This document shows positions 1,012 through 53,413 of a stretch of 60,443 nucleotides of DNA, one piece after another. Source of the DNA: an uncultured Gemmatimonadota bacterium (GTDB lineage Bacteria > Gemmatimonadota > Gemmatimonadetes > Palauibacterales > KS3-K002); the NCBI GenBank assembly GCA_964347815.1, contig CAYGAJ010000001.1:1-60443 (forward strand). Direction: 5' to 3'. The first letter of the stretch is position 1. The number at the start of each line of letters is the position of its first letter. The position numbers and the translations under genes were made by a program. The notes beneath the pieces were generated by a model. The model did no database searches. It had not been told where the DNA came from and was given only the letters and a program-made list of their open reading frames with translations.

Positions 1012-1023
1012 CCCGGGCGTGGC

Positions 1024-3243: not shown

Positions 3244-3258
3244 TGTGGGTTGCCGTCT

Positions 3259-5235: not shown

Positions 5236-5265
5236 GTCAGTGTTCCAGGCGATTCCGTGAGGGGC

Positions 5266-6660: not shown

Positions 6661-6752
6661 GGGGTCACCTCGGCGCAAAGGTCGCTGCTGAGAAAGGCAC
6701 GAAGCCGTCGCGCGAAAGATAGGATAGCGCGGGTGGCGGCGGCAAAGGGACA

Positions 6753-6806
6753 GGGCCGGGCGGGTCGGGTAATTGAGAGGGAGGTTTGGGGAGTGGGAGG
6801 GGTGGG
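6753..6806 (+). other. Two adjacent G-quadruplex-type G-run motifs in the divergent intergenic region
   Basis: 6753-6769 reads GGGccGGGcGGGtcGGG. 6779-6806 reads GGGaggtttGGGGagtGGGaGGGGtGGG. Both were read directly from the + strand. Confidence 0.5.
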
Positions 6807-6818
6807 CGGAAGAGAGGA

Positions 6819-6846
6819 TTGACGGACAGTTTGAAGGGGGTATACT
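6819..6846 (+). promoter_or_regulatory. Sigma70-type promoter candidate for the TetR/efflux operon
   Basis: TTGACG (6819-6824), 16-nt spacer, TATACT (6841-6846). The annotated GTG start at 6853 is only 7 nt downstream, which implies a very short or absent leader. Confidence 0.4.
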
Positions 6847-6852
6847 AGGGGC

Positions 6853-22979: not shown

Positions 22980-23900
22980 TCAGGCCGTGCGCGAAGCCGC
23001 TCCGTCCGCTAGACGAACATCGATCACCGGAGTCTGCACGATCTCGAAGGTGGCCGAAGCGAGGGCGACGCGGCCGCCGGTCTCATCGACCTTCTCGAGG
23101 ACGCGCTGCCACAGCTCGTCTTTGGTCGTGCGCCGTTTCTTGTAATCGACGACGTATCGGAGCGTGAACTCCAGCCAGTTGTCGTTGGCGATCAGCGTCA
23201 CCATCGGATCGATCCGCGCATCTTCGATCCGGTAGCGGTTGACGATCTGTTTCCAACCTTCTCTCGCGGTCGCCGCGTAGCCACCGACGGTCTCATTGGC
23301 GACCTGGACGAGCAGCTCGCGTGCCAGGCGTGTGTCACTGCCGTACCGCACCGGAACGACGATCTCGTCCCATAAGAACGGGAAGTCGCCGGAATAGTTG
23401 AACACCGGATCCTTGAAAACGAAGCTGTTGGCGACCCGGACGATGCGGCCATTGTACTGATCGGCGTTGATCCATTGGCCGCACTCCATCAGCGTCGTCC
23501 GCAGTATCCCGATGTCGATCACGTCGCCCTTGATGCCGCCGAGCTGGACGCGATCGCCGACGCGGTAGAAGGTGGCGAAGTTGACGGCGACCCAGCCGGC
23601 CACGCTGGCGATGACCTCCTGAAGGGCGAAAGCCACGCCCGCACCGGCGACCCCGAAGGCGACGGTGAGGCGACCCAGCCGGTCGCTGAACACCGCGGCG
23701 AGCAGGAGCAGGCCCGCGGCGTAGCCGATGAAGGTGACGAACTTCCGCGTGCGGTACCGCGCGTCCGAGTCTTTGATGTGCGGCGCGATCGCACGCTGTG
23801 CGATACGCACGACCACATGAATCACTAGCAACCCGAGGACGGCGGCGAGCAACTTGCCCACGGTCGGGTCGAACAACCAGCGCTGCACAAAATCCTCCAT
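22980..23900 (-). CDS. Mechanosensitive ion channel family protein (MscS-like)
   Basis: GGAGGAACCC precedes the ATG at 23900. Three TM helices, then the beta-domain motif RVGDRVQLGGIKGDVIDIGILRTTL. Confidence 0.85.
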   Translation of the reverse strand: MEDFVQRWLFDPTVGKLLAAVLGLLVIHVVVRIAQRAIAPHIKDSDARYRTRKFVTFIGYAAGLLLLAAVFSDRLGRLTVAFGVAGAGVAFALQEVIASVAGWVAVNFATFYRVGDRVQLGGIKGDVIDIGILRTTLMECGQWINADQYNGRIVRVANSFVFKDPVFNYSGDFPFLWDEIVVPVRYGSDTRLARELLVQVANETVGGYAATAREGWKQIVNRYRIEDARIDPMVTLIANDNWLEFTLRYVVDYKKRRTTKDELWQRVLEKVDETGGRVALASATFEIVQTPVIDVRLADGAASRTA

Positions 23901-23984
23901 GGGTTCCTCCGTTAGCCGAGGCGTCTCGTTTCGCCGGTTCGGACCCTCCGCTCCGGCGCCGCGCCCGGTGACGCCCGCGCTGGC

Positions 23985-25697
23985 TCAGCTCTTCGGTACA
24001 AGGTTTTGCAGCGGGTTGAGTCGGAACGCCGGCGCGGCGTAGTCCTTCGGCAGATAGTCCTGCGGGATGTTGATCTGGTGCCCATCCCTCACGGCCGAGA
24101 AGTGCGGCGACATGATCTCGACACCCGCCTCGTTGAACTTGTCCTGGATGTTCTGGTGCAGCTCCGAGTAGATCTTGGCCATCATCTGAGGCTTATCGGT
24201 GTAAGCGTTCAGCTCGTAGCTCACGTAGAAGTCGTCGAGGCTCGTCTGTAGAACGAACGGTGCGGGTTCCTCCTCGACGTTTTCCGTATCACGCGCCGCC
24301 GCCAAGAGCAACTCGTGCACTTGCTTCCACGGTACATCGTAGCCGATGGTGACGCCGGTATGCAGGATGAGGCCGGTCCGCGCCGACGTGCTGTAATTGA
24401 TGATGTGGCTGCCCAGTACCATGGCGTTGGGCACGGTGATGTCGACGTTCTTGGTCGTACGCACGTATGTGGCGAGCAGCGTTCGCTCTGTGACGTCGCC
24501 GACGGTATCGGAGATCTTGACGCGATCCCCGATGTCGAACGCACGCGTATAAGTGAGGACGACGCCGGCGACGATGTTTGCGATCGCACCCGTCGATCCT
24601 AGAGAAAAGAGGACACCGAGAAACAGCGAGACGCCTTTGAACGCGTCGGAACCGGCGCCGGGCAGGTACGGGAAGATCGCTATGGCCGTGAACGCAATGA
24701 TCAAGAACCGGACGATCTTGAAGGTCGGCCTTGCCCAGCCCTTGTAGAAGCCGGGGAGTGCTATCGTTCCCTTGCCGATCTCGTTAAAGATGAGCTTCGT
24801 GAACTTTATCAAGTAATAGGTGACGAGTATGATGACGGCGATAAAAAAGAGGTTGGGCAGGTAGGCGACGAAGCCGCGTGCCACCGCGCCGAGAGGTGTG
24901 CCGATGAAGCGGTAAATGATGGCGGCATAGCCTCGGGTCCAGGGGAAAAACCCCAGTATCAGGGGAAGACTGAAGTAGAGTACCACTATCGTAGCCGCGA
25001 CTCGGGCCGCCTTTGCCAACCAGATGAGCAGGTCGGTGAGTCGAGACGAAGTTGCGAGCGTCAGTCGTTGAATTTTCAGCGACGGAATCCGCGTGTCTCG
25101 CCAGGAGTCCAGCTTGGCATAGAGCTTCGGAAAGAGCTTGCCGAAGATGAAGAAGATCAGCGCCAGTGCGATGAGCGTCAGCGCCGTATAGCCCGCACCC
25201 AGCAACAAGCTGGTCAAGCTGTACTGTCGGTGAAGCTCTTGTAAGGTAGTGTCGATCAGCGTCGCCAGCTCCGTCGCCAGCTCCTGACGCGGGCGCCCTG
25301 CGGCCCGCGCGTCGCGGTCCGTGACGCTCATGACGATCCGGTCCCCGATGAGGAGGTCGGACGAGGTCTCTCCCTCCTCGATGCTCACCGGCTCGACGCT
25401 GGAGAGCGGATCCTTATAGATCCTCTCCAGCCGTTCGGCGATGGTTCGGGCGCGGTCCTCGGGTGTGAAAGAGAGCACGCGTTCCTGCACATAGAAGAGC
25501 GTGCGGCCGCGCAGGACCACCGGCGCTCGCTCGGGCCCCGGTTGCGCCGCCGGCTCCTGCTGAGCGCCGGGCTCCTGCGCAGCAGGTCGTTGCGCCTGTA
25601 CCGTGTCGACTTGGGCACGCCCGGGCGTTGGCACGGCCAGCGCCAGAGCCAGCGCAGTGGCCGACAGCGTAGCCCGCGTATAGCGCCATTTCTTCAT
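23985..25697 (-). CDS. Mechanosensitive ion channel family protein with N-terminal signal peptide and periplasmic extension
   Basis: ATG at 25697 follows GGAGGTAACG (MKKWRYTRATLSATALALALAVPTPGRAQ). MscS core FDIGDRVKISDTVGDVTERTLLATYVRT. Confidence 0.85.
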   Translation of the reverse strand: MKKWRYTRATLSATALALALAVPTPGRAQVDTVQAQRPAAQEPGAQQEPAAQPGPERAPVVLRGRTLFYVQERVLSFTPEDRARTIAERLERIYKDPLSSVEPVSIEEGETSSDLLIGDRIVMSVTDRDARAAGRPRQELATELATLIDTTLQELHRQYSLTSLLLGAGYTALTLIALALIFFIFGKLFPKLYAKLDSWRDTRIPSLKIQRLTLATSSRLTDLLIWLAKAARVAATIVVLYFSLPLILGFFPWTRGYAAIIYRFIGTPLGAVARGFVAYLPNLFFIAVIILVTYYLIKFTKLIFNEIGKGTIALPGFYKGWARPTFKIVRFLIIAFTAIAIFPYLPGAGSDAFKGVSLFLGVLFSLGSTGAIANIVAGVVLTYTRAFDIGDRVKISDTVGDVTERTLLATYVRTTKNVDITVPNAMVLGSHIINYSTSARTGLILHTGVTIGYDVPWKQVHELLLAAARDTENVEEEPAPFVLQTSLDDFYVSYELNAYTDKPQMMAKIYSELHQNIQDKFNEAGVEIMSPHFSAVRDGHQINIPQDYLPKDYAAPAFRLNPLQNLVPKS

Positions 25698-25828
25698 CGT
25701 TACCTCCATCTTTGGGTGCATCTCGCCGAGACGGCGGTCCGGCAACGGGCCGCCATACACGCCGTTTTTTTTGTGCGAAGTGGACTGAGAAGGGTCTGAA
25801 GGTAAGCCGTTCCGCGCAAACAATCCAG

Positions 25829-30157: not shown

Positions 30158-30842
30158 GGCCCCCCCCAAACTCTCGACCCTGATTCTCGCCGGCGTCGCC
30201 ACGCTGTTCGTTGCGCTCGTGGTCGGCCTGGTCGCCCGTAGCCTCATCCGCCCCGAGCTTGAGGTGTTCCTGCCAAGCCCGGCCGCCCCGGAAGAGGTGG
30301 GAGAGGGCGTGGTCGGGCCGCGGCTCTACACCGTGGACGCGCGCTCGCACGACGAGTGGGTCTATTTCGACTTCTCTCGTGGCTCGGTTGTGCCGGTCGA
30401 CTCGCGGCGGTCCCTCGACTGGGACATCGCCTTCCAGCGCCACCGGATGATCACGAACGGGGGCGCCACGAATCCGCTGGGTCGTGCGGGTGTGTCTCCC
30501 TTGGGTTCGGCCGTCATCGAGTCGGCGCTCGGGCTGCCGGAGGCGGGCTACGTGGCCGATGAGCGCCGTGGCGACACGCCCCGCAACCGGGTGCTCGAGG
30601 ACTGGTACGACTACAGCTGGACCTCGCACGTTTTGCAGCCGGCCGACCGCGCCTTCGCCGTCCGCACGGCGGACGGCAAGTATGCCGTCGTGCGCTTTCA
30701 GGGCTACTACTGTCCGGGGGGACGGCCCGGCTGCGTAGCTTTCCGATATCGCTACCGCGGCGACGGCGGACGAACCTTCCCGGAGCTACGGCCCCGTTCG
30801 GCGGGATCGTCAGAGTCGGAGGACGCTAGGGAGAGCCGCTGA
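30156..30842 (+). CDS. HmuY-like membrane-anchored protein
   Basis: N-terminal TM anchor. WVYFDFSRG...SLDWDIAFQRHRMITNGG and YAVVRFQGYY are recalled as HmuY-family features. Confidence 0.5.
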   Translation: MAPPKLSTLILAGVATLFVALVVGLVARSLIRPELEVFLPSPAAPEEVGEGVVGPRLYTVDARSHDEWVYFDFSRGSVVPVDSRRSLDWDIAFQRHRMITNGGATNPLGRAGVSPLGSAVIESALGLPEAGYVADERRGDTPRNRVLEDWYDYSWTSHVLQPADRAFAVRTADGKYAVVRFQGYYCPGGRPGCVAFRYRYRGDGGRTFPELRPRSAGSSESEDARESR

Positions 30843-33759
30843 TCGTTGGGGTCAGTGCCATCTCATCGAGGAAGAGGCTCCCTCCCGACTCGCGGCCGTG
30901 GCGCCGGACCGTGCGGGTGAGGACCAGGCGGTCCTTCGCGCGCGTCATCCCTACGTAGAGCAGGCGGCGCGACTCGTCGATCTCATCTCGGCGGTTGTCG
31001 ACGACGGCGTAGTAGCCGGGGATCTGCATGTCTTCCACGCCGACGAGATAGACGCGTGAGAACTCGAGACCCTTGGTCGAGTGTAGGGTCAACAGGTTCA
31101 CGCGGTGCGGGTCGGCCTCGACGCCCTCCGAGGTCGAGAGTGCCACACGCTCGAGCAGCCGGCGAACGGACTCGCCCAGCTCCTCCGCCCGGCTGGCTTC
31201 GATGAGGGTCCGAAGACGGGCCACCGCGGCCGGATAACGCTCGGCGGGTCGGCGCTCGGTCCTGATCTTCTCCATCAGCTGACGGCCGCCGAGCCGGGCG
31301 ATCAGCTCTTCCAGATCCGGGGCCGGGCCGGGGGTTCGATCCCGCTCCCCCCCATAGAACTCGAGGCAGTCGCTGTAGCGTCCCAGAGCGAAGGAGACGG
31401 CCAGTTCCAGCAGTAGCTGGTCCTCGGCCTGCAGACGGCCCGGCGGTTCCAGCGCCAGCCCGATAGCCAGATGGTCGAGGAGGTTGATGAGAGCCGCCTT
31501 GCGGGCGCGGGCGCGCTTGTGTTGGCCGAGGACCTGGAACACGTGAGCGAGGGTCACGGCATCGTCCAGGGCGTGATGGGCGACGCCGGCGTCGATGTGG
31601 AAACGCGTCGCCAAGTCTTCCAGGCGGGCGCTCTCGTGAAAGAGCGAGCGGGCTAGGGGCAGGGTATCGTAAAAGATCATGTCGTCGACGTTCGCGAAGC
31701 GCTCGACGTTGCGCCGAAGCACGGGCACGTCGAAGCCGTGGCCGTTGTGGGCGACCATGACGTGGCCGTCGACGAACTCGAAAAAGCGCGGCCACACCTC
31801 TTCGAGGCTCGGGGCTCCCTGCAGGTCCTGCTGTGTATAGCCGTGTTTTTCTGTCGCCTTGAGCGAGATCGGCTTGTGGCAGCTCACGAACGAACGGAAC
31901 GTGTCCACCACCACCCCGCCGCTCACTTTGGCGGCGCCGAGTTCGATGATCTCGCAGCTGCCGGGGTCCAGGTCGGTGGTCTCGATGTCGAAGGTCACGT
32001 AGTCCTGCAGCACGTCACGAAAGCTGCGGGCCTGAATGAGCTGGAGCGCTTTGAACAGGGTGGTGGCCAGCGGTCGTCCGGTTTGCGAATCGGTGCCGAG
32101 GACCAGGTCCCCGGGGCGCGGCTCGACCGCGGTCGTCAGGTATTCGCAGGCCGCCGGCAATTCCACGGCCTGGAGCATCCCACGGGCCGCGACCTCGATC
32201 CCGCCCAGCGGCGCGAGATACACCGACCCTCCGTTCGCCACCACCGCGGTCAGACGATCGGCAAGCTGGCGGGCTGCCGGAGCCACCTCGGGGTCTTCCA
32301 GCTCGTCGTGCCGTTCCTCGAGGCGGTTCTCATAACGCTTGATGCGTTGCGAGAGCAGCTCGTCGATGAGGCCGGTCAGGGTGGAGTGCGACTCGTAGAC
32401 GGCCCGCAAGTTCTCGACGTGATACACGAAGCGCCAGGCTTTCTTGCTGTCCGGGTGTCCTTTCGGGTGCCGCCGGGCGTAGGCGCGCATCGCGCCCAGC
32501 AGGTCGCCGCCGCGGCCGGCGGCTATCGTCCGAACCTCGGCCATCAACTCGCGCGGCAATAACCGCTCGGCGAATGCCTCCAACGCCAGCGGTTCGTCGG
32601 GCGTCGTCATCACGCGCAAGGAGGCGACGACGTAGGCGATCACCGGGTCGTCGAGCAGTGCGCGGCCGCGCGCCAGGCGGCAGGGGACGCCGGCCGCGAC
32701 GAAGCGTTTTTCCAGCTCGCGTCCGATCTGGTGCTTTCGGTACAGGACGGCGTAGTCGCCCCAGCCGCAGCCGCTGGACTCACGATCGGCGACGATGCTC
32801 TCGAGCAGCCAGTCCGCTTCGGCGGTCTCGTCGTCGAAGTTGTAGCACTCGACCTTGAACTCCGATTCGCGCTCCGCCTCGATCTTCTTGACGAACAGCT
32901 CGGGGTTCTCCCGCATCAGTCGCCGGGCCACCTCGAAGATCTGGCGGCTGCAGCGGCAGTTGCGGTCGAGGATGATGGGATCCTCCACTTCAAAGTCCGT
33001 CCGATACTGCCAGAGGATGCGCGGGTCCGAGCCGCGCCAGGAGAAGATCGACTGTTCGTCGTCGCCCACCGCGAAGATGTTCCGGTGTTCTTGTACTAGA
33101 CGCTTGAGGATTCGGTACTGTGCGGCGTCCAGGTCCTGTGCCTCGTCCACCAGCAGGTAGCCCCAGCGTGCGGCCACCGCCTCCGCTATCGGAGGGTGAT
33201 CGCGGAACAGCCGGTCGGTGAGCGCGATGATGTCGTCGAAGTCCACCAGGTTCTTCTGGCGTAGCATCGACAGGTAGCTGTCGAGAAGCGCATCGTCGCC
33301 CTCGGTGAGCCTATAGCCCTGCAGCCGGTTACGGCCGAAGAGGGTGAGCAGGGGGCCGTGTCGCTTGGCCGGCCGCACGCCCAGACGCCGCAAGATCAGG
33401 CGCTGGTATTGCTCGTCGGCCACCCCGAATCCGCGACGCAGACCGACCGGCTCCGGGTGCTCGCGTAGGATGTTCAGGCAAAGCGAGTGCAGCGTCCCGC
33501 GGGTCACGCGGTCGGCGCGATCGCCCAGCCGGCGGTGCAGTCGGGCCGTGACCTCTTCCGCCGCCTTGTTGGTGAAGGTGACCGCGCAGATGCGCTCGGG
33601 CGCGAAGCCTTTCTCCTCGATCAGGTACTCGACGCGGCGGATCAGGCAGAACGTCTTGCCGGCGCCGGGGCCGGCGAGGACGAGCGTCGGTCCCAGCGGC
33701 GCTTCGATGGCGGCCCGCTGCTGGGGGAACGGTGTCAGCGCTTCCGGGCTTGACGTCAT
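30826..33759 (-). CDS. UvrD/Rep/PcrA-family helicase with an inserted DEDDh (DnaQ-like) 3'-5' exonuclease domain (977 aa)
   Basis: Helicase motifs AGPGAGKT (I), TFTNKAA (Ia), LLVDEAQD (II), VGDDEQSIFSWRG (III), LHSTKGLEF (V), LYVGMTRAKDRL (VI). The exonuclease lies between motifs IV and V: FDIETTDL (Exo I), VAHNGHGFDVPVL (Exo II), HHALDDA (Exo III). Confidence 0.9.
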   Translation of the reverse strand: MTSSPEALTPFPQQRAAIEAPLGPTLVLAGPGAGKTFCLIRRVEYLIEEKGFAPERICAVTFTNKAAEEVTARLHRRLGDRADRVTRGTLHSLCLNILREHPEPVGLRRGFGVADEQYQRLILRRLGVRPAKRHGPLLTLFGRNRLQGYRLTEGDDALLDSYLSMLRQKNLVDFDDIIALTDRLFRDHPPIAEAVAARWGYLLVDEAQDLDAAQYRILKRLVQEHRNIFAVGDDEQSIFSWRGSDPRILWQYRTDFEVEDPIILDRNCRCSRQIFEVARRLMRENPELFVKKIEAERESEFKVECYNFDDETAEADWLLESIVADRESSGCGWGDYAVLYRKHQIGRELEKRFVAAGVPCRLARGRALLDDPVIAYVVASLRVMTTPDEPLALEAFAERLLPRELMAEVRTIAAGRGGDLLGAMRAYARRHPKGHPDSKKAWRFVYHVENLRAVYESHSTLTGLIDELLSQRIKRYENRLEERHDELEDPEVAPAARQLADRLTAVVANGGSVYLAPLGGIEVAARGMLQAVELPAACEYLTTAVEPRPGDLVLGTDSQTGRPLATTLFKALQLIQARSFRDVLQDYVTFDIETTDLDPGSCEIIELGAAKVSGGVVVDTFRSFVSCHKPISLKATEKHGYTQQDLQGAPSLEEVWPRFFEFVDGHVMVAHNGHGFDVPVLRRNVERFANVDDMIFYDTLPLARSLFHESARLEDLATRFHIDAGVAHHALDDAVTLAHVFQVLGQHKRARARKAALINLLDHLAIGLALEPPGRLQAEDQLLLELAVSFALGRYSDCLEFYGGERDRTPGPAPDLEELIARLGGRQLMEKIRTERRPAERYPAAVARLRTLIEASRAEELGESVRRLLERVALSTSEGVEADPHRVNLLTLHSTKGLEFSRVYLVGVEDMQIPGYYAVVDNRRDEIDESRRLLYVGMTRAKDRLVLTRTVRRHGRESGGSLFLDEMALTPTISGSP

Positions 33760-33831
33760 GACGGGCTTCGGGCCACACTCAGCGCGAGTTCACATTTGGT
33801 GACTTCAGCGGCCCTGGACAGGAGAGCCACC

Positions 33832-34104
33832 ATGGCGACGATCAAGGTTTACACCACCCCGACTTGACCCTACTGCAAGATGGTCAAGGATTGGCTATCA
33901 GAACACGGTTGCGAGTTCGACGAAGCCGACATCAGCAAAGACGTATTCGAACTGCGGGAGTGGCGCAAGCTGACCGGCGGTGTGGGGGTGCCGGTCGTTG
34001 CCCATGGCAACGACTTCATCATCGGATTCAACCCCGAGCGCCTCGAGATGCTCCTCGACTGCTGCAAGCACACGAGCCCCGTCGAGCTTCCCGAGGGTGG
34101 CTAG
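33832..34104 (+). CDS. Glutaredoxin-like protein (YruB/NrdH-type fold) with in-frame TGA at the first active-site Cys; putative selenoprotein (90 aa)
   Basis: GGAGAG lies 5 nt before ATG 33832. Translation reads MATIKVYTTPT-TGA(33865-33867)-PYCKMVKDWLSEHGCEFDEADISKD...GVGVPVVAHGNDFIIGFNPERLEMLL. The TGA sits exactly where CPYC has its first Cys. The ORF track reports only the truncated 33880-34104 piece. Confidence 0.65.
33879..33899 (+). promoter_or_regulatory. SECIS-like hairpin downstream of the in-frame TGA
   Basis: GAUGGUC (33879-33885) pairs with GGCUAUC (33893-33899): 7 bp including two G-U pairs. The loop is AAGGAUU. The stem starts 11 nt after the UGA. Confidence 0.45.
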
Positions 34105-41311: not shown

Positions 41312-42244
41312 TCAACCGCGCACGAGATTTCGGACGAGGAACATCACGTTGGCGGGCCGCTCCGCGAGCCGCCGCATGAACCAGGGAAACCAGGACTGGC
41401 CGTAGCTGATCAGAACACGCATCGCATACCCGTCTTCGGCGAGGCGAAGCTGAGCCTCTCGCCGAATGCCGTAGAGCATCTGGAACTCGTAAGCCTCTCT
41501 GGGCAGCCCGATCGCTTCGGCACGACGGCAAACGGCTGCGATCATCCGAGGGTCGTGGGTTCCGAAGATGGCCCGCGTTCCGTTGGCCCGGGAAGCTTGC
41601 TCGATCAAGACATCGGCGAGGCGGAGGAAGCTGGCATCCACATCCTTCTTTCGCCGGTAGGCCACGTTGTGCGGCTCGTTGTATGCGCCTTTGACCAGCC
41701 GGATGACAGGTGCGAGTTGCAAAAGCGTGGCGAGGTCGGCAGCCGTCCGGTGCAGATAGGCCTGGAGACAGAGCGCCACATTGTCGTGATCGGCTCTCAG
41801 GCGCCTGTAAAGCTCGATCGTTCGGTCGACATAGGAGCTATCCTCCATATCGATGGCGACAAACCGGCCGAGCCCTGCGGCGCGGGAGATGATCGTTTGA
41901 TAACGGCAAAGGGTTTGGTCGAAGTCGAGATCAAGGCCGAGCTGTGTGGGCTTGATCGAGATGTCGGTGTCGAGCGACAGCTCGCTTACGCGGTTGAGCA
42001 CGTCCAGGTAATGCTGGGTCACGCTATCGGCCTCTGCGCTGTGCGTGATGTTTTCGCCCAGCAGGGTCAGGATCGTGCCGATCCCTTTGGGCCGCAGCGA
42101 CTCGCTCGCGTCGATGGCAGACGCCGCGTCCTCGCCCGGCATGAACCGCTCGACTGCGTGGCGCGTGAACCGACGACGCGTGAGCTGGCTGGCAAGCCAC
42201 TCGCTCCGCGATCCTCGCAGCAGGATCTCCCGGGCGATCCCCAT
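41312..42244 (-). CDS. Proline dehydrogenase (monofunctional PRODH family)
   Basis: FMPGEDAASAI...GIGTILTLLGEN...ISIKPTQLGL...VAIDMEDS...LVKGAY..., a TIM-barrel PRODH pattern. Confidence 0.85.
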   Translation of the reverse strand: MGIAREILLRGSRSEWLASQLTRRRFTRHAVERFMPGEDAASAIDASESLRPKGIGTILTLLGENITHSAEADSVTQHYLDVLNRVSELSLDTDISIKPTQLGLDLDFDQTLCRYQTIISRAAGLGRFVAIDMEDSSYVDRTIELYRRLRADHDNVALCLQAYLHRTAADLATLLQLAPVIRLVKGAYNEPHNVAYRRKKDVDASFLRLADVLIEQASRANGTRAIFGTHDPRMIAAVCRRAEAIGLPREAYEFQMLYGIRREAQLRLAEDGYAMRVLISYGQSWFPWFMRRLAERPANVMFLVRNLVRG

Positions 42245-42387: not shown

Positions 42388-43818
42388 TCAGCCACGTTCG
42401 ATCGGATGACCCTCGATCACCCATGAGCGGATTCCGCCCTTGAGATTGGCCACGCGTTCGTAGCCGTGTGCCTTGAGCAGGCTCGCTCCGATGGCGGAGC
42501 GCCAACCGGTCTGGCAGTGGAGTACGACGTCTCGGTCCCTCGGGATCTGGTCCAGGCGGTCGGTGAGATACCCGAGCGGCACGTTGGGCACGTCGGGAAG
42601 GTGGGCGGCTTCCCACTCCGGCAGGCTGCGGACATCCACCACCGCCACCCGGCCGTTCTCCAGCATCTTGGCCAGCTGCTGGGACGTGATCTCGCTGGTG
42701 GTCGCCAGTCGCCGGCCGGCCTCGGCCCAGGCGTTGACGGCGCCGCCACCGAAGTACCCGGCGATGCGGTCGAGCCCGATCACCCGCAGGTCACCCGCCG
42801 CCTCGTCGATCATGTGGGGGTCCGTGTCTTCGTCGACGATCAGATAGAAATCGCGGTCGAACGGTATGAGCCAACCGGCCCAGGTCGGGAACGTCCGGTC
42901 CAGCGGGATGTTGATTGTGCCGGGCACGTGACCTTCGGCATAGTCGCCGATGTGACGCGTGTCGACGACGAACGCACCGTCCGCGAGAAGATCGGGAAGC
43001 CGCGACTCCGGCAATCGCTCCGGTCGCCTAAAGCCCGCGATCACCGGTGGGCCCGCTTTGTTGATGCGCTTCATCTCAGCGAAGTACTTGGGCGGATCGG
43101 GTTGGCCGGCGAGCACCGCCTCGACGAAGTCGTCCGCGTTCGCGGCCCTGAAAGCCCAGTTGAACATCCGCTCGTAGCCGAGGGTGGACTGAGGAACCGC
43201 GCCCAGCGCCTTGCCGCACGCCGAGCCCGCTCCGTGCCCCGGCCAGAGCTGCAGGTAGTCGGGCATATCCTTGAAGCGCTGGATCGACTCGTAAAGCTGC
43301 CGCGCCGCTTCCTCCATCGTTCCCTCGATCCGCGCGGCTCGCTCCAGCAGGTCGGGGCGGCCGACGTCGCCGACAAACACAAAGTCGCCCGTAAACACTC
43401 CCATCGGACGGTCGGCGGCGGCGGTGTCGGTGATCACGAAGCAGATGTGCTCTGGCGTGTGTCCCGGCGTGTGCAGGATCTCGACCCGCACGTTGCCGAC
43501 CATGAAGGCATCACCGTCATGGAGCAGGGTGGCCCCTTCCTCGGCAGCGAACTCGTATTTCCAGTCAGCGCTTCCGTCGTCGGACAGGAGAAGCCGCCCG
43601 CCACTGCAGCGAGCCAGCTCCCGGGCGCCGGAAACGAAGTCGGCGTGGATGTGCGTCTCGGTGATGTGAGTGATTCGCAGCCCCTCCTGCTCCGCCGCTC
43701 TCACGTAGGCGTCCACCCGGCGATTGGGATCGACCACCATCGCTTCGCCTGTGGCGGAGCAGCCGACCAGGTAAGACGCTTGAGCCAGCTTGTCGTCGTA
43801 AAACCGCCTGAGCAGCAT
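42388..43818 (-). CDS. MBL-fold hydrolase (persulfide-dioxygenase-like) fused to two rhodanese domains
   Basis: ITETHIHADFVSG metal motif at the N-terminus. C-terminal rhodanese active-site loop HCQTGWRS. Confidence 0.9.
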   Translation of the reverse strand: MLLRRFYDDKLAQASYLVGCSATGEAMVVDPNRRVDAYVRAAEQEGLRITHITETHIHADFVSGARELARCSGGRLLLSDDGSADWKYEFAAEEGATLLHDGDAFMVGNVRVEILHTPGHTPEHICFVITDTAAADRPMGVFTGDFVFVGDVGRPDLLERAARIEGTMEEAARQLYESIQRFKDMPDYLQLWPGHGAGSACGKALGAVPQSTLGYERMFNWAFRAANADDFVEAVLAGQPDPPKYFAEMKRINKAGPPVIAGFRRPERLPESRLPDLLADGAFVVDTRHIGDYAEGHVPGTINIPLDRTFPTWAGWLIPFDRDFYLIVDEDTDPHMIDEAAGDLRVIGLDRIAGYFGGGAVNAWAEAGRRLATTSEITSQQLAKMLENGRVAVVDVRSLPEWEAAHLPDVPNVPLGYLTDRLDQIPRDRDVVLHCQTGWRSAIGASLLKAHGYERVANLKGGIRSWVIEGHPIERG

Positions 43819-45098: not shown

Positions 45099-46067
45099 CT
45101 AGAGCTCTCTCCCCTTACCGGAATCGCTGACGCTCATCAGAGCTTCCGGGTAGGGCTCGAAAAACGTCTGCGGCTTCAGGTAGTCCTGATCGAAGCGGAC
45201 GATCCAGGCCCGGAGGATGGAGGTTACGGCGCTCACCGGCGTTCGCCCGTTTCGGTACCGCTCCAGAGAGCTTTGAAACAGCCGCTTTTCGCTGGATTTA
45301 AGCTGGTCGGAAAAGTAGCCCGAGGCATGTTGCAGAACGTTGATGACCGACGTGTAGCGGGGCGTGCGCGCCAGCGCCGCCTGAAAGTGCCGTTCGTACG
45401 CATCGATCAGCTGGGCGAAGGGGCGCTTCTCGTGATTCGCCACGATCCGCCCCAGCGTGCGCATCTCCTTCTGGTTGTAAGCCATCAGCAGGAACTTGTT
45501 CACCGAATGGAAGCGAACCAGATCGCCCAGCGATCCCGAGCCCTTGAGCGCCCGGAAACGGGCCAGGCTGAAGAGCTTTGTGAGGAAGTGCTCGCGGATC
45601 CGGTAGTTGCGTAGCCGCCCCTCGTCTTCGATCGCCAATCCGCCGTACAGGTCCAGCACCCGCCCGCCGAACAGACCGGGACCCCGGGTGGACGACGCCG
45701 ATTTGTCGAGACCTTGATAGTGCTTGACGTCCGAGATGCCGCAGGACGGCGATCGGTTCTTGAGGATGAAGCCGTCCACGGCGCCAAGGGAGGTCAAGAA
45801 CCGATCGGAGAAGTCCTGCATGTCCGCGGTGACGTCGCGGTCCGTCGCCGGCTGCAGCAGCCGCGCCTCCCCACCCACGGCGACGATCCGGACGGGCTCG
45901 CGCGGGACCCCCAAGCCGATCTCCAGCTCGGGACACACGGGGACGAAGGTCACCCAAGGCTCCAGCTCACGCACGAAGTCGTAGGGGATTACCTGGGCGT
46001 TGTAACGAACCGGTTCAAGCTCCAGGCAGCGGCTCAGTACGACGACCGGCCTAACCTGCTCATCCAT
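45099..46067 (-). CDS. YbgA-family protein (DUF523 + DUF1722)
   Basis: VVVLSRCLELEPVRYNAQ (DUF523-type) and a C-terminal helical DUF1722-like part. In E. coli, ybgA precedes the photolyase gene. Confidence 0.8.
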   Translation of the reverse strand: MDEQVRPVVVLSRCLELEPVRYNAQVIPYDFVRELEPWVTFVPVCPELEIGLGVPREPVRIVAVGGEARLLQPATDRDVTADMQDFSDRFLTSLGAVDGFILKNRSPSCGISDVKHYQGLDKSASSTRGPGLFGGRVLDLYGGLAIEDEGRLRNYRIREHFLTKLFSLARFRALKGSGSLGDLVRFHSVNKFLLMAYNQKEMRTLGRIVANHEKRPFAQLIDAYERHFQAALARTPRYTSVINVLQHASGYFSDQLKSSEKRLFQSSLERYRNGRTPVSAVTSILRAWIVRFDQDYLKPQTFFEPYPEALMSVSDSGKGREL

Positions 46068-46198
46068 TCAACCGCACCTCCTGCGTCATCGACATGTCAC
46101 AAAGACTGGCCGGATCGGCCGCCGGCGACCTGGGGGGCGCGAGCGGGTGCCGGGGTCATTGTGTTTAGATAATATCAATATAATAACTGTATAACGCC

Positions 46199-46227
46199 TT
46201 GACAATACTTATTGTCTAGGTTATGTT
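46199..46227 (+). promoter_or_regulatory. Sigma70-type promoter with overlapping inverted repeat (candidate CarH/LitR operator)
   Basis: TTGACA (46199-46204), 17-nt spacer, TATGTT (46222-46227). Perfect inverted repeat GACAATA-ct-TATTGTC at 46201-46216. It lies in an AT-rich island within GC-rich DNA. Confidence 0.5.
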
Positions 46228-46315
46228 GCTGACGAAAATGTGGCAGCGCAATAGCGGCGCCCGTGCTCACTCTAAATCGCAGCCAGATTTGCCAACAGCC
46301 TGAGCTTGCCCGGGT

Positions 46316-47908
46316 ATGAGCGATCGACGACACACCCCCAGCCAGTACGCGGACCAGCGCGCAAAGCGGCAGCCGTCCGGCCCGCGGGAAGCCGCCGAGC
46401 AGGCGAAGGCGGAGCTTGCGCCGGTCGCCGGCCAGCCGCCGCTCGTCTTGCTGACCGGGGCGACAGGCTACGTCGGGGGACGTCTCATGCGGGCGCTGAA
46501 TCGGCGCGGCGTGCGCCTCCGCTGCTTAGCACGGAGGCCCGAGTACCTGGAGCCGAAAGTCGTCACGGGAACGGAGGTCGTCAAAGGCGATGCAGACGAT
46601 CTGCCGTCGCTGCGGCGGGCACTGACCGGGGTGGATGTCGCCTATTATCTGATCCACTCCATGGGTTCCTCGGAGGACTTCGAGCAAAAAGATCGGCGCG
46701 CTGCGGAGAACTTCGCGCGAGCGGCGGAAGCCGCGGGGGTTCGGCGAATCATCTACCTGGGTGGACTGGGTCGAGAGCCCGGTCTGTCACAGCACCTGCG
46801 GAGCCGGCAGGAGGTCGGGCGTATCCTTCGCGGATCGGGAGTGCCGACGCTCGAATTCCGCGCTTCGATCATCATCGGGTCGGGCAGTCTGTCGTTCGAG
46901 ATGATCCGCTCACTGGTGGAGAAGCTGCCGGTGATGGTGACGCCCCGCTGGGTGCGGGTGCCTGCTCAGCCGCTCGCCGTGGAAGATCTGATCGACTACC
47001 TGGTAGAGGCGCTGGAGGTCGCGGTCGAGGGCGACGCCGTCTTCGAGATCGGTGGCGCGGACCCGGTCTCCTATATGGACATCATGAGGGAGTACGCGCG
47101 CCAGCGTGGACTGCGGCGATTGATGATTCCGGTTCCTGTCCTCTCGCCAAAGCTGTCGAGTCTGTGGCTGGGGCTCGTTACCCCCGTCTACGCTCGGGTG
47201 GGAAGAGATCTCATCGACAGTGTTCGCAATCCGACGGTGGTGGAGGATGATGCGGCCTTGCGGGCTTTCGACGTACGTCCCCGTGGGGTGAAAGAGGCGA
47301 TCAGGCGCGCGCTGATCAATGAAGACCAAGAGTTTGCGGAGACGCGCTGGTCCGACGCGCTCTCATCCGGCGACCGTCAGAGTTGGGGGGGCAAGAAGTT
47401 CGGCTCCCGCATCGTGGACTCGCGGTCGGTTTGGGTTCCTTACGAGCCCCGGCAGGCGTTCCGGCCAATTCGGAGGCTAGGTGGAGAAGTTGGTTGGTAC
47501 TTCGCCGACTGGTTGTGGCGCCTCCGGGGCTTTATCGACCTCTGGTTCGGTGGCGTGGGCTCGCGTCGCGGGCGTCGCGACGCGGAGCAGCTCGCGCCCG
47601 GCGAAACCGTGGACTTCTGGCGGGTGGAGCAGTTCACGCCCGACGAACTGCTGCGCCTGTCGGCGGAGATGAAGCTGCCGGGACGCGCCTGGCTTCAGTT
47701 CGAGGTGACGCGCCAGGGCGATGGAAGCGTCGTGCGTCAGACCGCGATCTTCGACCCGGTCGGCCTGTTCGGCCACCTGTACTGGTACACTCTCTACCCG
47801 CTTCACCAGCTCGTTTTCGCCGGGATGCTGCGTGGGATGGTCAAGGCGATGAACGCGAATGGTGGGGAACGCCCCATCGGCGCGCTGCAGGCCGGTGCAG
47901 CGGCTTAG
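46316..47908 (+). CDS. NAD(P)H-binding SDR-like protein with C-terminal DUF2867-like domain (530 aa)
   Basis: Rossmann motif VLLTGATGYVGGRL. C-terminal ...WRVEQFTPDELLRLSAEMKLPGRAWLQFEV is recalled as DUF2867-like. Confidence 0.75.
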   Translation: MSDRRHTPSQYADQRAKRQPSGPREAAEQAKAELAPVAGQPPLVLLTGATGYVGGRLMRALNRRGVRLRCLARRPEYLEPKVVTGTEVVKGDADDLPSLRRALTGVDVAYYLIHSMGSSEDFEQKDRRAAENFARAAEAAGVRRIIYLGGLGREPGLSQHLRSRQEVGRILRGSGVPTLEFRASIIIGSGSLSFEMIRSLVEKLPVMVTPRWVRVPAQPLAVEDLIDYLVEALEVAVEGDAVFEIGGADPVSYMDIMREYARQRGLRRLMIPVPVLSPKLSSLWLGLVTPVYARVGRDLIDSVRNPTVVEDDAALRAFDVRPRGVKEAIRRALINEDQEFAETRWSDALSSGDRQSWGGKKFGSRIVDSRSVWVPYEPRQAFRPIRRLGGEVGWYFADWLWRLRGFIDLWFGGVGSRRGRRDAEQLAPGETVDFWRVEQFTPDELLRLSAEMKLPGRAWLQFEVTRQGDGSVVRQTAIFDPVGLFGHLYWYTLYPLHQLVFAGMLRGMVKAMNANGGERPIGALQAGAAA

Positions 47909-47970
47909 CTCAGGGTCGGAGAGTCAAGTCTCATCAGAAAGAGGTCGGCCCCACGGAGAGAAAACAAATT

Positions 47971-48780
47971 CTATGACTTCGCCAAACTGTTCTGACAGCT
48001 TACGCAGAAATACGTCGTCCTTCGAAGCTCACCCTGGCGCACCATCTCAATCATCGAGTTGCAACGAAAGCACGGAAGGCCCCGTCGGCGGTACGTCCAG
48101 TAGCGTTCTCCGCCCCGCCGGAGGCTAGGGTGCAGGGTGACCACCGGACCGGAACGGCGCGCGTTCTCGAGCATGGCGGGAATCAGGCGGTCCCAGAGTC
48201 GCTCGACCTGAGTTCGCTGCAGCGACTTCACAGTCGCCCGTGGATCGAGTCCCGCCAGAAACAATCCCTCTGATTTGAAGATGTTGCCGATGCCCGCGAC
48301 GATCCGTTGATCGAGCACGGCGTCGCCGAGCGCTCGGTCGTCGGCGCGGCGTAGGCGCTCCCAAGCCTGATCTCGATCGAAACCGGGCTGGAGGATGTCG
48401 GGGCCGAGCGAGGTGATTCGCTTGTGCGTCCGCAGCTCTTCCGAGGTCAACAGTTCAACGACAGGGCCGTTGAAGAAGACCGCCTCGTGCGTTGCGGTGC
48501 GAAGCCGCAATCGGACGTGCTTCTCGGGCTTACGCAGCTTCAGCGGCGGCCTGCCGAACTGCCATGAACCGTAGATCATGGCGTGACAATGGAGCGTGAA
48601 GCCCTCTGAAAGATGCAACAGCAGGTGTTTTCCGTGGGTCTGGATCTCGCTTAGCTGTTGACCGGACAAACCAGCGCCTCGTTCGGCCCACCGCTTCGGC
48701 AGGTCGACCTGCACCAGCGGCTGCCCGACGAGAGGCCGCAGCGATCGCGCCCAGCGCAGGATGCTATGTCCCTCCGCCAT
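47971..48780 (-). CDS. nei: Fpg/Nei-family DNA glycosylase (Nei-like), N-terminus MAEGH rather than MPEGH
   Basis: THGKHLL lysine motif, H2TH DQRIVAGIGNIFKSEGLFLAGLDP, zinc finger CFRC-x16-CVSC. The start overlaps the upstream gene by 17 nt. Confidence 0.85.
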   Translation of the reverse strand: MAEGHSILRWARSLRPLVGQPLVQVDLPKRWAERGAGLSGQQLSEIQTHGKHLLLHLSEGFTLHCHAMIYGSWQFGRPPLKLRKPEKHVRLRLRTATHEAVFFNGPVVELLTSEELRTHKRITSLGPDILQPGFDRDQAWERLRRADDRALGDAVLDQRIVAGIGNIFKSEGLFLAGLDPRATVKSLQRTQVERLWDRLIPAMLENARRSGPVVTLHPSLRRGGERYWTYRRRGLPCFRCNSMIEMVRQGELRRTTYFCVSCQNSLAKS

Positions 48781-50173
48781 CGCTTTCGTCCGGATCCATT
48801 ATGCCAAGCTCGTGCCGTAGAGCGCTCTCCAGCGTCGGGTAGAGGTAACGGAATCCCGCGGAGCGCTGGAGGCGGCGCGGCTCGACCCGGGCTCCGTCGA
48901 GGAACAGTGCCTGCCCCATCTCTCCGAAAGCCGTCCTCAGGACGAAGGCCGGAACGGGTAGGAACGTCGGGCGGCGGAGCACCGCTCCGAGGGTGTGTGT
49001 GAAGGCCCGGTTGCTGAGCGGCTGTGGGGAAACGACGTTGACCGGGCCTTCCAGGTCATCGGCGTAGGCGAGGTAGAGGATGGCGCCGAGGAGGTCGTCG
49101 AGGGCGATCCAGCTCATGTACTGCCGCCCGCTGCCCAGCACACCGCCTAGGCCCAGACGGAAGGGAAGCAGCAGGCGCGGCAGGACGCCGCCTGCGGCCG
49201 TGATGACCAGACCCACCCGCAGGTTGACGACCCGGATTCCCGCCGCCCGAGCCGGCTCCGTCGCGGCCTCCCACTCGCGGCACAACTCGGCGAGGAAGCC
49301 AACGCCCGGGGGGTTGTCTTCATGGACCGCCTCGTCGCCTCGATCCCCGTAATAACCGACCGCCGAGGTGGTGATCAGGGTGTGGGGCGGTCGATCGAGA
49401 CGGGCGAGCGATTCAGCGAGGAAGCGGGTGACCTTGACGCGGCTGTCCCAGATCTCGCGTTTTAGCGAGTCCGTCCAGCGCCAGGCAGAGACGCTTCGCC
49501 CTGACAGGTGCACCACGACGTCCGTGCCTTCGAGACCGCTGGGATCGATGTGCCCGGCGTAAGGGTTCCAACCAACCTCCCGACTGGCAGGTCGCGGAGT
49601 GCGGCGAACCAGCGTCGTCACCTTGTGGCCTCCCGTCGTGAGGAACGCCGCCAGGTTGCGCCCGATGAGACCGGAGGCTCCGCTGATGGTCACATGAAGG
49701 CGCTGCCGGCCCCCGTGCGCGCGGTGACGGCCCAGATCGTCGGCGGTGCGTCGGTGGCGAAAGCTGAACGTACGGTGAAGGTCGCTACGGACTTTCGATC
49801 CGGCTAGCAGTTCACCGAGCATGCCGCCCGGAAGACGATAGGTGATCTCGTCTTCCAGATACGACGTGTCGCCGTTCGCGGCATCGATCCGGTGCGCGTG
49901 GTGCCAGACCGCGAAGGGTCCACTCACTTGCTCATCGACGAAACGTCGTCCGGGCTCGAGGTCGCTGTGAACGGCGACCCAGTGCAGCTTGAACGGACCT
50001 TTCTTGAGCTGAATGACCGTGCGTGCGCCTTCTTGAATTCCACCCGTCCGCTCCAACACGCGGATGCTTTCCCATGGCGGTATGAGGCGCTCGAGCGCGC
50101 CCTCCCGCGCGTGCCAGTCGAAGACCTCCGCCGCTGGTGCATTGAGCAGAACGCGTCGTTTGAAAACCGGCAT
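48764..50173 (-). CDS. SRPBCC domain fused to a YfcH/TIGR01777-type NAD-dependent epimerase-family domain
   Basis: N-terminal VLLNAPAAEVFDWHAREGALERLIPPW (SRPBCC). ISGASGLIGRNL Rossmann motif and a DUF1731-like C-terminus. Confidence 0.8.
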   Translation of the reverse strand: MPVFKRRVLLNAPAAEVFDWHAREGALERLIPPWESIRVLERTGGIQEGARTVIQLKKGPFKLHWVAVHSDLEPGRRFVDEQVSGPFAVWHHAHRIDAANGDTSYLEDEITYRLPGGMLGELLAGSKVRSDLHRTFSFRHRRTADDLGRHRAHGGRQRLHVTISGASGLIGRNLAAFLTTGGHKVTTLVRRTPRPASREVGWNPYAGHIDPSGLEGTDVVVHLSGRSVSAWRWTDSLKREIWDSRVKVTRFLAESLARLDRPPHTLITTSAVGYYGDRGDEAVHEDNPPGVGFLAELCREWEAATEPARAAGIRVVNLRVGLVITAAGGVLPRLLLPFRLGLGGVLGSGRQYMSWIALDDLLGAILYLAYADDLEGPVNVVSPQPLSNRAFTHTLGAVLRRPTFLPVPAFVLRTAFGEMGQALFLDGARVEPRRLQRSAGFRYLYPTLESALRHELGIMDPDESDGGGT

Positions 50174-50177
50174 CGGA

Positions 50178-51850
50178 TCAATCGGGTTCGCTGGGCGCGT
50201 CCGCCGGGCTCAAAGTCTCGGCATCGTTCAGCGTGTCGCGAACCCAGCGGAAAACCTCAGCGTCGTGGCGTCGACGCTTCTTATCGCGGCGGCTCAGGTT
50301 GGCGAGCGGCAGGCGAAGGCGTGGGTTGTCGTCGAGCTGCTTCTTGTGACGCGCCAGAAAGGCCCAGTAAAGATTCGTGATGGGGCAGTCGGTCTTGGGA
50401 TCGAACTCACAGCCGGCACAATAATCGCTCATCCGATTGATGTAGGCTGCGCCCGACACGTACGGCTTTGTCGTCATCAGCTCGCCCAGCGCGAAGCTGC
50501 CCATCCCCAGAACGTTCGGCTCGACCACCCAGTCGTAGGCGTCGGCGTACGCGGCCCAGAACCAGTCCGTCAGCTCCCGCGGCGATGTGTCGATCAACGT
50601 CGCGATGTTGGACAGGACCATGAGGCGTGTGATGTGATGCCCGTAGCCGCTGGCCCAGACGTCGGCGACCACGTGATCGAGGCAGCGCAGGCCAGAGGTC
50701 TCGCCCCAAAACGCTGCCGGTAAAGGCTGGCGGCTCTCCAGTGCCGACGGTTCCGCGCCTCCGTCGAGATGGTCCACCTGCTCGCTCGCCGGCCACCGCT
50801 CACCCGACCAGCGCTCGTAGCCGCCGTCGCCGGGCGTTTCGCCAACCGGCATCTCACCGTCCGGGAGTTGTCGAAACCCGTCGGTGGCCCGATGGACGTG
50901 GCGGACGAACTCGCGCCAGCCGAGGACCTGACGGACAAACCCCTCCTTGCTGGGAAGTGGGATGTCCAACGCGAGGACCTCATCGACAATCCGGGCTGGG
51001 AGTAGACGGTGCAGGTTCAGCAGAGCCGACACGCGCGTGTGAAAGAGGCCGCTCGAGCGCACTGACATCGCGTCTTCGTACGGACCGAAGCTAGCCAGGC
51101 AATGCTGCTTCGCCCATTCCCACAGCTGTTCCGCGTCCTTCGCGGTGGCCGGTAGCGAGTCGAGTTCGAGCGTGCCGGGATGATGATCGAAGCGGCTACG
51201 GATGAGATCTGCCACTTCCTCTTTGATCTCGTCGACCGGGAAGGTCGGCGCCTCGGGTGCCGGCGGATCGCCGTCCCAGCGCTCCCGGTTTTCGGCGTCG
51301 AAGCTGTACTTTCCACCCACCGGCTTTCCGTCCTCCATCAGAATGCCGGTTTCTTGGCGCAGGTGTCGGTAGAAGGCGTCCATCCGCCAGGGCGGACCAC
51401 TCTTCTGACTGGCCTCGAATTGCTCGGTCGTGGTGAGCCAACCCTCATGGTCCAGCTGCTCGAGAACCCCGTCGTCGACCAGGCGTTGGAGATCGACGCG
51501 CAGTTCTCGCTCCGCCGGCTCCATCATTCGCAGGGAGCCCAGCTCCCCGGCGACGCGCTCGAGCGCTTCCGGATAGGGCCGATCGGTTGTCTGGTATCGG
51601 ACGGCGACGCCCCGTTTCGCCTGCTCCAGGGCGAAGTGGCGCTGGTTGGCGAGGATCAAGCCCAGCTTCTGCTTGTGATACGGTCGCCGCTCGCCTTTCC
51701 AGTTGCTTTCGATCAGGACGATGCCGACGTCGCCCGGCTGCTCTTGCGCCAGGGGACCGATCCGGTCCGAGAGCTGGTCGTACGGGACGTAGATCCAGCG
51801 CCGGCCCCGGGCTTTCGCGTTGAGTTGGTCGAGGCGCGCGCGGAAGCTGT

Positions 51851-51854
<4 letters not shown>
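50178..51854 (-). CDS. Cryptochrome/photolyase-family protein of the FeS-BCP (PhrB/CryB, (6-4)-photolyase-like) type (558 aa)
   Basis: ATG at 51854 (MNSFRARLDQL) overlaps the upstream stop (ATGA). GYGHHITRLMVL and the Cys cluster YCAGCEFDPKTDCPITNLYWAFL. The longer 694-aa ORF is rejected. Confidence 0.85.

Positions 51855-53413
<1,559 letters not shown>

Follow-up and report, generated by a model that had tools for sequence, protein, structure and literature searches.

In a DNA stretch of 60,443 nucleotides (nt) from an uncultured Gemmatimonadota bacterium (forward strand of contig CAYGAJ010000001.1, assembly GCA_964347815.1), we found a gene that is very probably decoded as a selenocysteine (Sec)-containing glutaredoxin (Grx). 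The whole stretch that was analysed is called the window in the following. The reading frame of the gene comprises 90 codons and contains a TGA codon at the place of the first Cys of the active site motif CPYC. The initial annotation had interpreted the gene as a glutaredoxin-like selenoprotein with Sec at exactly this Cys, and our tests, which were done at the sequence level, support this interpretation. We put the probability that the gene is a Sec-decoded glutaredoxin at roughly 0.9. The coordinates of all features are collected in Table 1.

The reading frame

The long frame starts with ATG at 33832-33834, and the sequence GGAGAG ends 5 nt before this ATG. The translation begins with MATIKVYTTPT, reaches the TGA at 33865-33867, continues with PYCKMVKDWLSEHGCEF...PEGG, and ends at TAG 34102-34104. 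Directly past the TGA, the residues PYCKMVKDWL are encoded. TGA 33865-33867 is the sole in-frame stop of the 90-codon frame, and it falls at the first redox Cys of T-C-P-Y-C. Coordinates, start, GGAGAG spacing, and translation were re-read from the sequence and are exactly as first annotated. The list of open reading frames (ORFs) has only the piece from ATG 33880, i.e., a fragment of 74 amino acids (aa). We agree with the initial annotation that this fragment lacks strand b1 and the active site; the short forms in public databases are likewise without the redox motif.

Elsewhere in the window, TGA is an ordinary stop codon. It terminates 20 of the 41 called ORFs, and the genetic code is therefore standard.

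Homologues with TGA and with Cys codons

A search of 5.8 billion proteins returned two classes of close homologues. The first class comprises full-length proteins with Cys, 86-101 aa long, which have a Glutaredoxin match and are 64-82% identical to the window protein. The second class consists of ORFs of 73-75 aa which start just past the TGA position and nearly all lack a Pfam match. Public proteins of this length without a Pfam match are P0005, P0016 (named “hypothetical protein” by NCBI), P0021, P0023, P0027-P0030, and P0033. In the DNA behind the short class, we found the same in-frame TGA, and it is preceded by MAxIKVYTTPT, which is conserved and shows synonymous differences.

One scan of species-representative genomes gave 58 loci, nearly all from metagenome-assembled genomes (MAGs) of Gemmatimonadota, and the codon in question could be read in 56 of them. 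Codon 12 is TGA in 47 of these species loci, TGT in five, and TGC in four. The Cys-form species are L038, L047, and L055-L061. Among the carriers of the TGA form are the complete or near-complete Gemmatimonadota genomes CP070722.1, CP070823.1, CP070815.1, CP070812.1, CP070666.1, OZ252244.1, OZ250165.1, and OZ252253.1. The frame is intact up to the conserved C-terminus in all 56 loci, with neither a frameshift nor a second stop. Hence, the in-frame TGA is conserved with an open frame on both sides, and Cys homologues align to the TGA codon. A Cys codon at this place in Cys orthologues had been expected and was found in the nine loci named above as well as in L066, L069, L070, and L071. Among the 20 Cys-form homologues that were aligned (the first row being the window protein, written with C for U), Cys12 is invariant. 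In a rough neighbour-joining tree, the Cys forms are scattered among the Sec forms. This scatter suggests that Sec and Cys have replaced each other repeatedly.

Near-identical strains that were assembled independently (five assemblies: L001-L003, L006, and L073) have the same TGA. This provides the support for the A at 33867 that the initial annotation had wished to see checked, and a base-call error at this position is therefore ruled out. The N-terminal extension, in which frameshifts or stops among relatives would be the mark of a pseudogene, is open and conserved in strains as well as in species.

One locus of the survey is placed outside the phylum. The contig CAXMUQ010000218.1 (L052) is binned as “uncultured Acidimicrobiia bacterium” and carries a typical Gemmatimonadota-type Sec-Grx, which is closest to that of L051. 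Either the contig is mis-binned or its Sec-Grx gene was horizontally transferred.

The hairpin downstream of the TGA codon

The initial annotation had proposed to look for a selenocysteine insertion sequence (SECIS) downstream of the UGA, and a hairpin of SECIS type was found at the canonical distance (33879-33899). Its stem of 9 base pairs (bp) is formed by GAUGGUCAA (33879-33887) and UUGGCUAUC (33891-33899). The stem is capped by the apical loop GGA (33888-33890), which extends to AGGAU when the closing A-U pair opens. The folding energy amounts to -9.2 kcal/mol (z = -3.46), and none of 200 shuffled sequences was as stable. According to the bacterial SECIS (bSECIS) model, the loop has 3-9 nt, the stem 4-16 bp, the spacing from the UGA is 16-37 nt, the energy is at most -7.5 kcal/mol, and a G is required in the first two positions of the apical loop (PMC13188914). 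The window hairpin complies with every one of these constraints, as it has a loop of 3 (or 5) nt with G-G, a stem of 9 bp, a spacing of 20 nt, and the energy given above.

This hairpin recurs at an identical position in each of the 48 Sec forms, whose comparison revealed the invariant stretch G(C/U)CAAGGAUUGGCU, located 16 nt past the UGA. The core of 5 bp is invariant except for a C/U change, which keeps either a C-G or a U-G pair. In the outer stem, the register shifts between clades and compensatory changes occur; a covariation score as high as the observed one was obtained in 0-2 of 500 shuffles. RNAalifold retained only the invariant 5-bp core because the outer stem changes its register between clades. 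A first fold of the single sequence 33865-33930 was unremarkable (z = -1.25) and gave a different hairpin on the 3' side. This 3' hairpin is not conserved and was dropped; the conserved element became clear only from the comparison of the 48 sequences.

The strongest signal for the hairpin is given by frozen synonymous sites. Asp20 is encoded by GAT in 45/45 Sec forms as compared with 29% of the Asp codons in the rest of these genes (p = 7e-22), Ala18 by GCC in 37/37 compared with 36% elsewhere (p = 3e-15), and Lys19 by AAG in 48/48 compared with 70% elsewhere (p = 8e-7; all are Fisher tests in which related sequences are treated as independent). In five of eight distant Cys forms, the core stem is broken and residue 20 varies. 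Constraint at the RNA level that is specific to the Sec forms is seen in the synonymous sites, in the stem breaks of the Cys forms, and in the covariation of the outer stem.

Some Cys forms still carry the hairpin sequence. In those that are 77-82% identical to the window protein, G(U/C)CAAGGAUUGGCU is intact after TGC, and we refer to this as a “fossil” hairpin (L066, L069, and L070). The slightly more distant Cys form L071 has lost it (GCG AAG GAC). The fossil hairpins point to a recent conversion from Sec to Cys.

Protein family, fold, and conserved residues

With U read as C, the product of 90 aa matches Pfam PF00462 over 1-60/60 (E = 8.5e-15) with 55.2 bits, which is above the gathering cut-off of 22.9. 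The best NCBIfam model is YruB (TIGR02196) with 70.2 bits, in which residues 3-76 align with profile positions 1-74/74, and the cut-off is 88.55. The NrdH model (TIGR02194) aligns over its full length and gives 52.5 bits at a cut-off of 85.75. For the Uxx_star models NF041212, NF041211, NF041114, and NF047338, the scores are 57.4, 46.5, 27.7, and 37.8 bits at cut-offs of 66, 100, 72, and 97, respectively. Hence, none of the curated NCBIfam models reaches its cut-off for the window protein. The initial annotation had assigned the protein to the YruB/NrdH type of glutaredoxins; this holds at the level of the fold, as YruB and NrdH are the best models and Pfam reports Glutaredoxin, but not at the level of NCBIfam membership.

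An AlphaFold2 model is available for the Cys homologue P0001, which is 82% identical to the window protein, and structural statements refer to this model. It has a pLDDT (predicted local distance difference test) value of 85 and the topology b1-a1-b2-a2-b3-b4-a3 (strands 4-8, 29-33, 55-58, and 61-64; helices 13-24, 38-48, and 68-80), and the redox motif is located where a1 begins. The model thus predicts a thioredoxin-type fold in which CxxC sits at the N-terminal end of helix a1 and b3 is preceded by a cis-Pro loop. Pro54 is invariant in the family alignment. Top matches in Foldseek are Grx and NrdH proteins with a probability of 1.00, among them Grx-1 of A. fulgidus (3ic4), the second-ranked 7c10, and several NrdH-redoxins. 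The best sequence match in the PDB is 7c10 as well (E = 4e-13).

The subfamily has a signature of its own, which consists of LREWRxL(T/S)GGxGVP and a C-terminal Cys/His motif.

Cys27, Cys77/78, and His80: Cys27 is present in 46/48 Sec forms and His80 in 43/48, and all aligned members have at least one Cys at 77/78. The conserved Cys77/78 and His80 form the motif D-C-C-x-H-T at the end of helix a3. Together with Cys27, these residues may constitute a second redox or metal site.

Proposed decoding and reaction

Translation would start at ATG 33832, and the ribosome would not terminate at UGA 33865. The hairpin, which lies 12-33 nt beyond the UGA, would present its G-G apical loop to SelB, and SelB would bring Sec-tRNA(Sec). 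As the loop is written in the codons AAG-GAU-UGG of Lys19-Asp20-Trp21, the use of Sec would fix both the codon choice and residue 20. The predicted product is a dithiol glutaredoxin-like oxidoreductase of 90 aa with Thr-Sec-Pro-Tyr-Cys at the start of helix a1. Sec12 would attack disulfides or sulfenic/selenenic acids of partner proteins, and Cys15 would resolve the intermediate, giving a Sec12-Cys15 selenenylsulfide. The enzyme could then be re-reduced by a thiol system, e.g., a low-molecular-weight thiol or thioredoxin reductase. The data support the recoding and the fold; we infer that the inserted residue is Sec and that SelB is the factor involved, and the same applies to substrates and reductant.

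Sec machinery and alternative readings of the TGA codon

Several points weigh against the decoding of the TGA as Sec. Genes for selA, selB, selD, and tRNA-Sec are absent from the window and 63 related Gemmatimonadota loci (loci of about 330 kb; about 0.4 Mb in all). In the window and these loci, tblastn with SelA, SelB, and SelD of E. coli gave no match. ARAGORN detected no tRNA genes in the window and only ordinary tRNAs in 60 related loci, and the ORFs that were called and scanned in the window include none related to selenium. Rfam at gathering thresholds reported no SECIS, tRNA-Sec, or other family in the whole window, and at E values up to 10, only two chance-level matches appeared over 33800-34000; no Rfam SECIS family matches the region, bacterial SECIS elements being poorly covered in Rfam. 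The literature that was searched contained no publication on the use of Sec in Gemmatimonadota, Gemmatimonadetes, or Gemmatimonas. With respect to the hairpin, only 30 of the 48 Sec forms reach -7.5 kcal/mol (33-nt folding window), the p values above overstate the support because of the relatedness of the sequences, and the core stem is partly forced by the conserved codons of Lys19 and Trp21. The stem alone is therefore weaker evidence than the frozen synonymous sites.

Among the alternatives, recoding of the UGA with a residue other than Sec survives best, yet we regard it as improbable. SelB could deliver Cys with a non-canonical tRNA-Cys(UCA), or a near-cognate tRNA could read through (inserting Trp or Cys), helped by a weak UGA-C termination context. 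The results gathered here do not tell the inserted residues apart, and the lack of Sec machinery in the window and the 63 related loci fits such a reading. The base after the TGA is C in 48/48 Sec forms (UGAC), and UGAC is a weak terminator, as is known from work on E. coli. However, Cys codons are the only ones with which the UGA alternates, and such a pattern is the hallmark of Sec; a Trp in place of the nucleophile would leave the enzyme inactive. The SECIS geometry of the hairpin and its invariant G-G loop imply that a structure-specific factor is at work instead of passive leakiness. In addition, the nearest characterised relative, cGrx1 (see below), is a true selenoprotein.

A second alternative takes the TGA as a true stop. 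The product would then be a protein of about 74 aa from the internal Met, and the 11 codons upstream would form a leader ORF. Gene callers do report an ORF of this size, and the window indeed has an ATG at 33880. However, this start (codon 17) is ATG in only 3/48 Sec forms, and in about half of them it is not a start codon at all (CTC, GAT, ACG, CAA, and others). A Shine-Dalgarno core upstream of codon 17 was found in 0/55 loci, whereas a core of the GGAG type is located 5-20 nt upstream of the long-form start in 50/55 family loci. The short form would contain neither strand b1 nor any part of the redox motif; it has no Pfam match. By comparison, the 11 upstream codons match strand b1 of the Cys homologues residue for residue. 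In codons 5-11, 3843 synonymous and 884 non-synonymous pairwise codon differences were counted among the 48 Sec forms, so the extension is under purifying selection. A true stop is thus highly improbable, more so than the insertion of another residue.

That the gene is a pseudogene, or that TGC or TGT was turned into TGA by faulty sequencing or assembly, is effectively refuted: a single change of A to C or T would restore Cys and close relatives with TGC exist, but the same TGA is found in the five strain assemblies and 47 species, and purifying selection acts on both sides of it without a frameshift or second stop in any of them. Decoding as Sec hence remains our preferred reading.

Further selenoprotein candidates

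In two distant Gemmatimonadales MAGs (L042 and L046), a second gene with an in-frame TGA is located directly downstream of the Sec-Grx gene. It is peroxiredoxin (Prx)-like (AhpC/TSA), and its TGA lies at the redox Cys. The two copies are 69% identical and read FYRGHW-U-xFC (UxxC motif; PFC in L042 and AFC in L046), and the UGA is followed at 16 nt by a hairpin whose loop reads AGUUG. A “Prx-like thiol:disulfide oxidoreductase, UxxC” is a known selenoprotein family (PMC13188914), which the predicted product matches. This second gene independently indicates that the phylum decodes Sec and gives indirect support to the reading of the Grx gene. The tandem order hints at a Grx-Prx redox pair.

For the window itself, three crude scans for other selenoproteins were performed, namely for TGA between frames of high GC3 (G+C content at third codon positions), for TGA at ORF edges, and for TGA combined with a hairpin with a G-rich loop. 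These scans yielded no candidate besides the Grx. A TGA at 23985-23987, which separates two genes for MscS-type mechanosensitive channels in one frame, was rejected as a recoding site since a separate start for the downstream gene lies 28 codons on and the residues at the junction look non-coding.

Comparison with known glutaredoxins

cGrx1: The closest solved structure is that of cGrx1 from Clostridium (Alkaliphilus) oremlandii OhILAs. This protein is natively a selenoprotein, its active site being U(C)PXC, and it was crystallised as the Cys variant (PDB 7c10/7c12; PMC7642778). The protein also features in Kim et al. 2011, as cited in PMC13188914. Both proteins have a small single-domain Grx fold with Sec as the first residue of T-U-P-x-C and the resolving Cys three residues on. 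The P0001 model superimposes on cGrx1 with Foldseek TM (template modelling) scores of 0.74/0.91 and a root-mean-square deviation of 1.2 Å at 38% identity. Apart from this limited identity (~38%), cGrx1 differs in its origin (Firmicutes instead of Gemmatimonadota) and in its motif, which is U-P-H-C instead of U-P-Y-C. It lacks Cys27 and the C-terminal D-C-C-x-H-T motif of the Gemmatimonadota protein. The proposed partner of cGrx1 is a selenoprotein MsrA, whereas the Gemmatimonadota gene has no conserved adjacent partner gene. As the closest solved structure is a native U-P-x-C selenoprotein, the Sec-Grx type is already known, and the gene described here adds a member to it.

UxxC glutaredoxins: Glutaredoxin (UxxC) has been listed as a prokaryotic selenoprotein family since 2005 (PMC1088965, Sargasso Sea survey; PMC13188914, with the example WP_010943784.1). 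This bears out the statement of the initial annotation that Sec-containing Grx-like proteins are a known bacterial family. Shared features are PF00462, the UxxC motif, widespread Cys homologues, and a bSECIS directly 3' of the UGA with a G in the loop. The protein described here differs by its own subfamily signature; the likeness is one of description. No source that we found lists Gemmatimonadota among the hosts of this family.

YruB and NrdH: The YruB proteins (TIGR02196) and the NrdH-redoxins (TIGR02194; PDB 4hs1, 4f2i, 4fiw, and 1h75) have about 75-90 aa and the same topology and are strong structural matches. The window protein carries the classical Grx motif C/U-P-Y-C and differs from NrdH in that both NrdH hallmarks are missing. 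These hallmarks are C-V/M-Q-C and WSGFRP. To our knowledge, neither the YruB nor the NrdH family comprises selenoproteins.

UXX-star: The UXX-star families (NF041212, NF041211, NF041114, and NF047338) are also glutaredoxin-like selenoproteins and can be named by PGAP. They align weakly with residues 4-67 of the window protein. For UXX-star, two Sec residues and the motif UxxT are listed (PMC13188914), whereas the window protein contains a single Sec in UxxC, with a further 75 residues downstream.

Other genes in the window

The Grx gene stands alone in the window. Its divergent neighbour, a UvrD-helicase/RNase_T-exonuclease fusion of 977 aa, is located 71-207 nt upstream in 23 closely related species. 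This neighbour is clade-specific, as it is missing from the context of more distant family members. A conserved functional partner was sought in the gene neighbourhoods and none was found; the neighbours elsewhere are heterogeneous. In three related MAGs (L043, L049, and L050), a gene of baeRF family 3 (archaeo-eukaryotic release-factor-like, E = 9e-31) adjoins the Sec-Grx gene. A release-factor-like gene next to a UGA-recoded gene is an odd neighbour, and this is probably a coincidence.

Window positions 442-7494 harbour a probable conflict or anti-phage island. It includes genes for a SLATT_1 effector with two transmembrane segments, a DUF1232 protein, a TIR_2-domain protein, and a sensor protein with MAP3K_TRAF_bd and TPR-S; the last three encode about 660-740 aa each and are arranged head to tail in the same frame. 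A cluster related to light and DNA damage is located on the minus strand at 45102-54362. In addition, a proline dehydrogenase gene (41315-42244) adjoins a gene for a fusion of metallo-beta-lactamase and rhodanese.

Table 1 Features of the glutaredoxin gene, of related loci, and of the remaining window. Positions without a locus identifier refer to the window
Feature	Position	Strand	Basis or remark
Full-length gene of the predicted selenoprotein glutaredoxin	33832-34104	+	90 codons and TAG stop (34102-34104); active site T-U-P-Y-C
Shine-Dalgarno AGGAGAG of the 90-codon frame	33820-33826	+	Read from the sequence
In-frame TGA, putative Sec codon, residue 12, N-terminal nucleophilic position of CxxC	33865-33867	+	Codon comparison
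TGC codon of Cys15, resolving Cys of U-P-Y-C	33874-33876	+	Invariant in 74/74 aligned family members
SECIS-like hairpin	33879-33899	+	Folding and comparison of 48 Sec forms
74-aa ORF reported by gene callers	33880-34104	+	ORF list; annotation artefact, not the real product
Codons of Cys27, Cys77/78, and His80	33910-33912, 34060-34065, 34069-34071	+	Family alignment
UvrD-helicase/RNase_T-exonuclease fusion, 977 aa, divergent neighbour	30826-33759	-	Pfam domains
Cys-form genes with fossil hairpin	L066:359-634, L069:1501-1776, L070:1501-1785		Sequence
Prx-like selenoprotein candidate	L042:3237-3755 (TGA 3351-3353), L046:3325-3843 (TGA 3439-3441)	+	TGA at redox Cys
baeRF-like neighbours	L043:1795-3021, L049:3308-4495, L050:3365-4603	-	Family match
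SLATT_1 two-transmembrane effector	442-1008	+	Domain match
DUF1232 protein	1027-3243	-	Domain match
TIR_2-domain protein	3262-5235	-	Domain match
MAP3K_TRAF_bd and TPR-S sensor protein	5269-7494	-	Domain match
Two MscS-type mechanosensitive channel genes, one frame, single TGA between	22983-25823	-	Two ordinary genes
Metallo-beta-lactamase and rhodanese fusion (persulfide-dioxygenase-like)	42391-43818	-	Pfam domains
TudS-like 2-thiouracil desulfurase and DUF1722	45102-46067	-	Domain match
Fpg/Nei glycosylase	47974-48780	-	Domain match
Photolyase-related DPRP protein	50181-52262	-	Domain match
MerR and B12-binding CarH-like regulator	53346-54362	-	Domain match

Significance

Sec-containing UxxC glutaredoxins are already known, and our understanding of Sec decoding and of glutaredoxins is unchanged by the finding. 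New is a Gemmatimonadota-wide subfamily beyond the curated NCBIfam models. With respect to annotation, the gene is present in at least 47 species-level genomes, and the public calls that we saw are ORFs of 73-75 aa without the active site. With a family model that has U as residue 12, the truncated calls would all be corrected at once.

A more speculative proposal, which we consider rather unlikely, is that the use of Sec in Gemmatimonadota as a phylum has gone unrecorded, that this glutaredoxin is their near-universal “signature” selenoprotein, and that the cluster of Cys27, Cys77/78, and His80 is an extra site for redox chemistry or metal binding that is coupled to the Sec-Cys centre. If true, the extra Cys/His site would set the subfamily mechanistically apart from the known Sec-glutaredoxins.

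In terms of evolution, the family offers a case in which a putative SECIS is written in the conserved Lys-Asp-Trp codons and in which repeated switches between Sec and Cys would leave fossil hairpins behind. For the biology of this widespread soil and sediment phylum, the predicted Sec would mean that many of its members rely on selenium for thiol redox chemistry.

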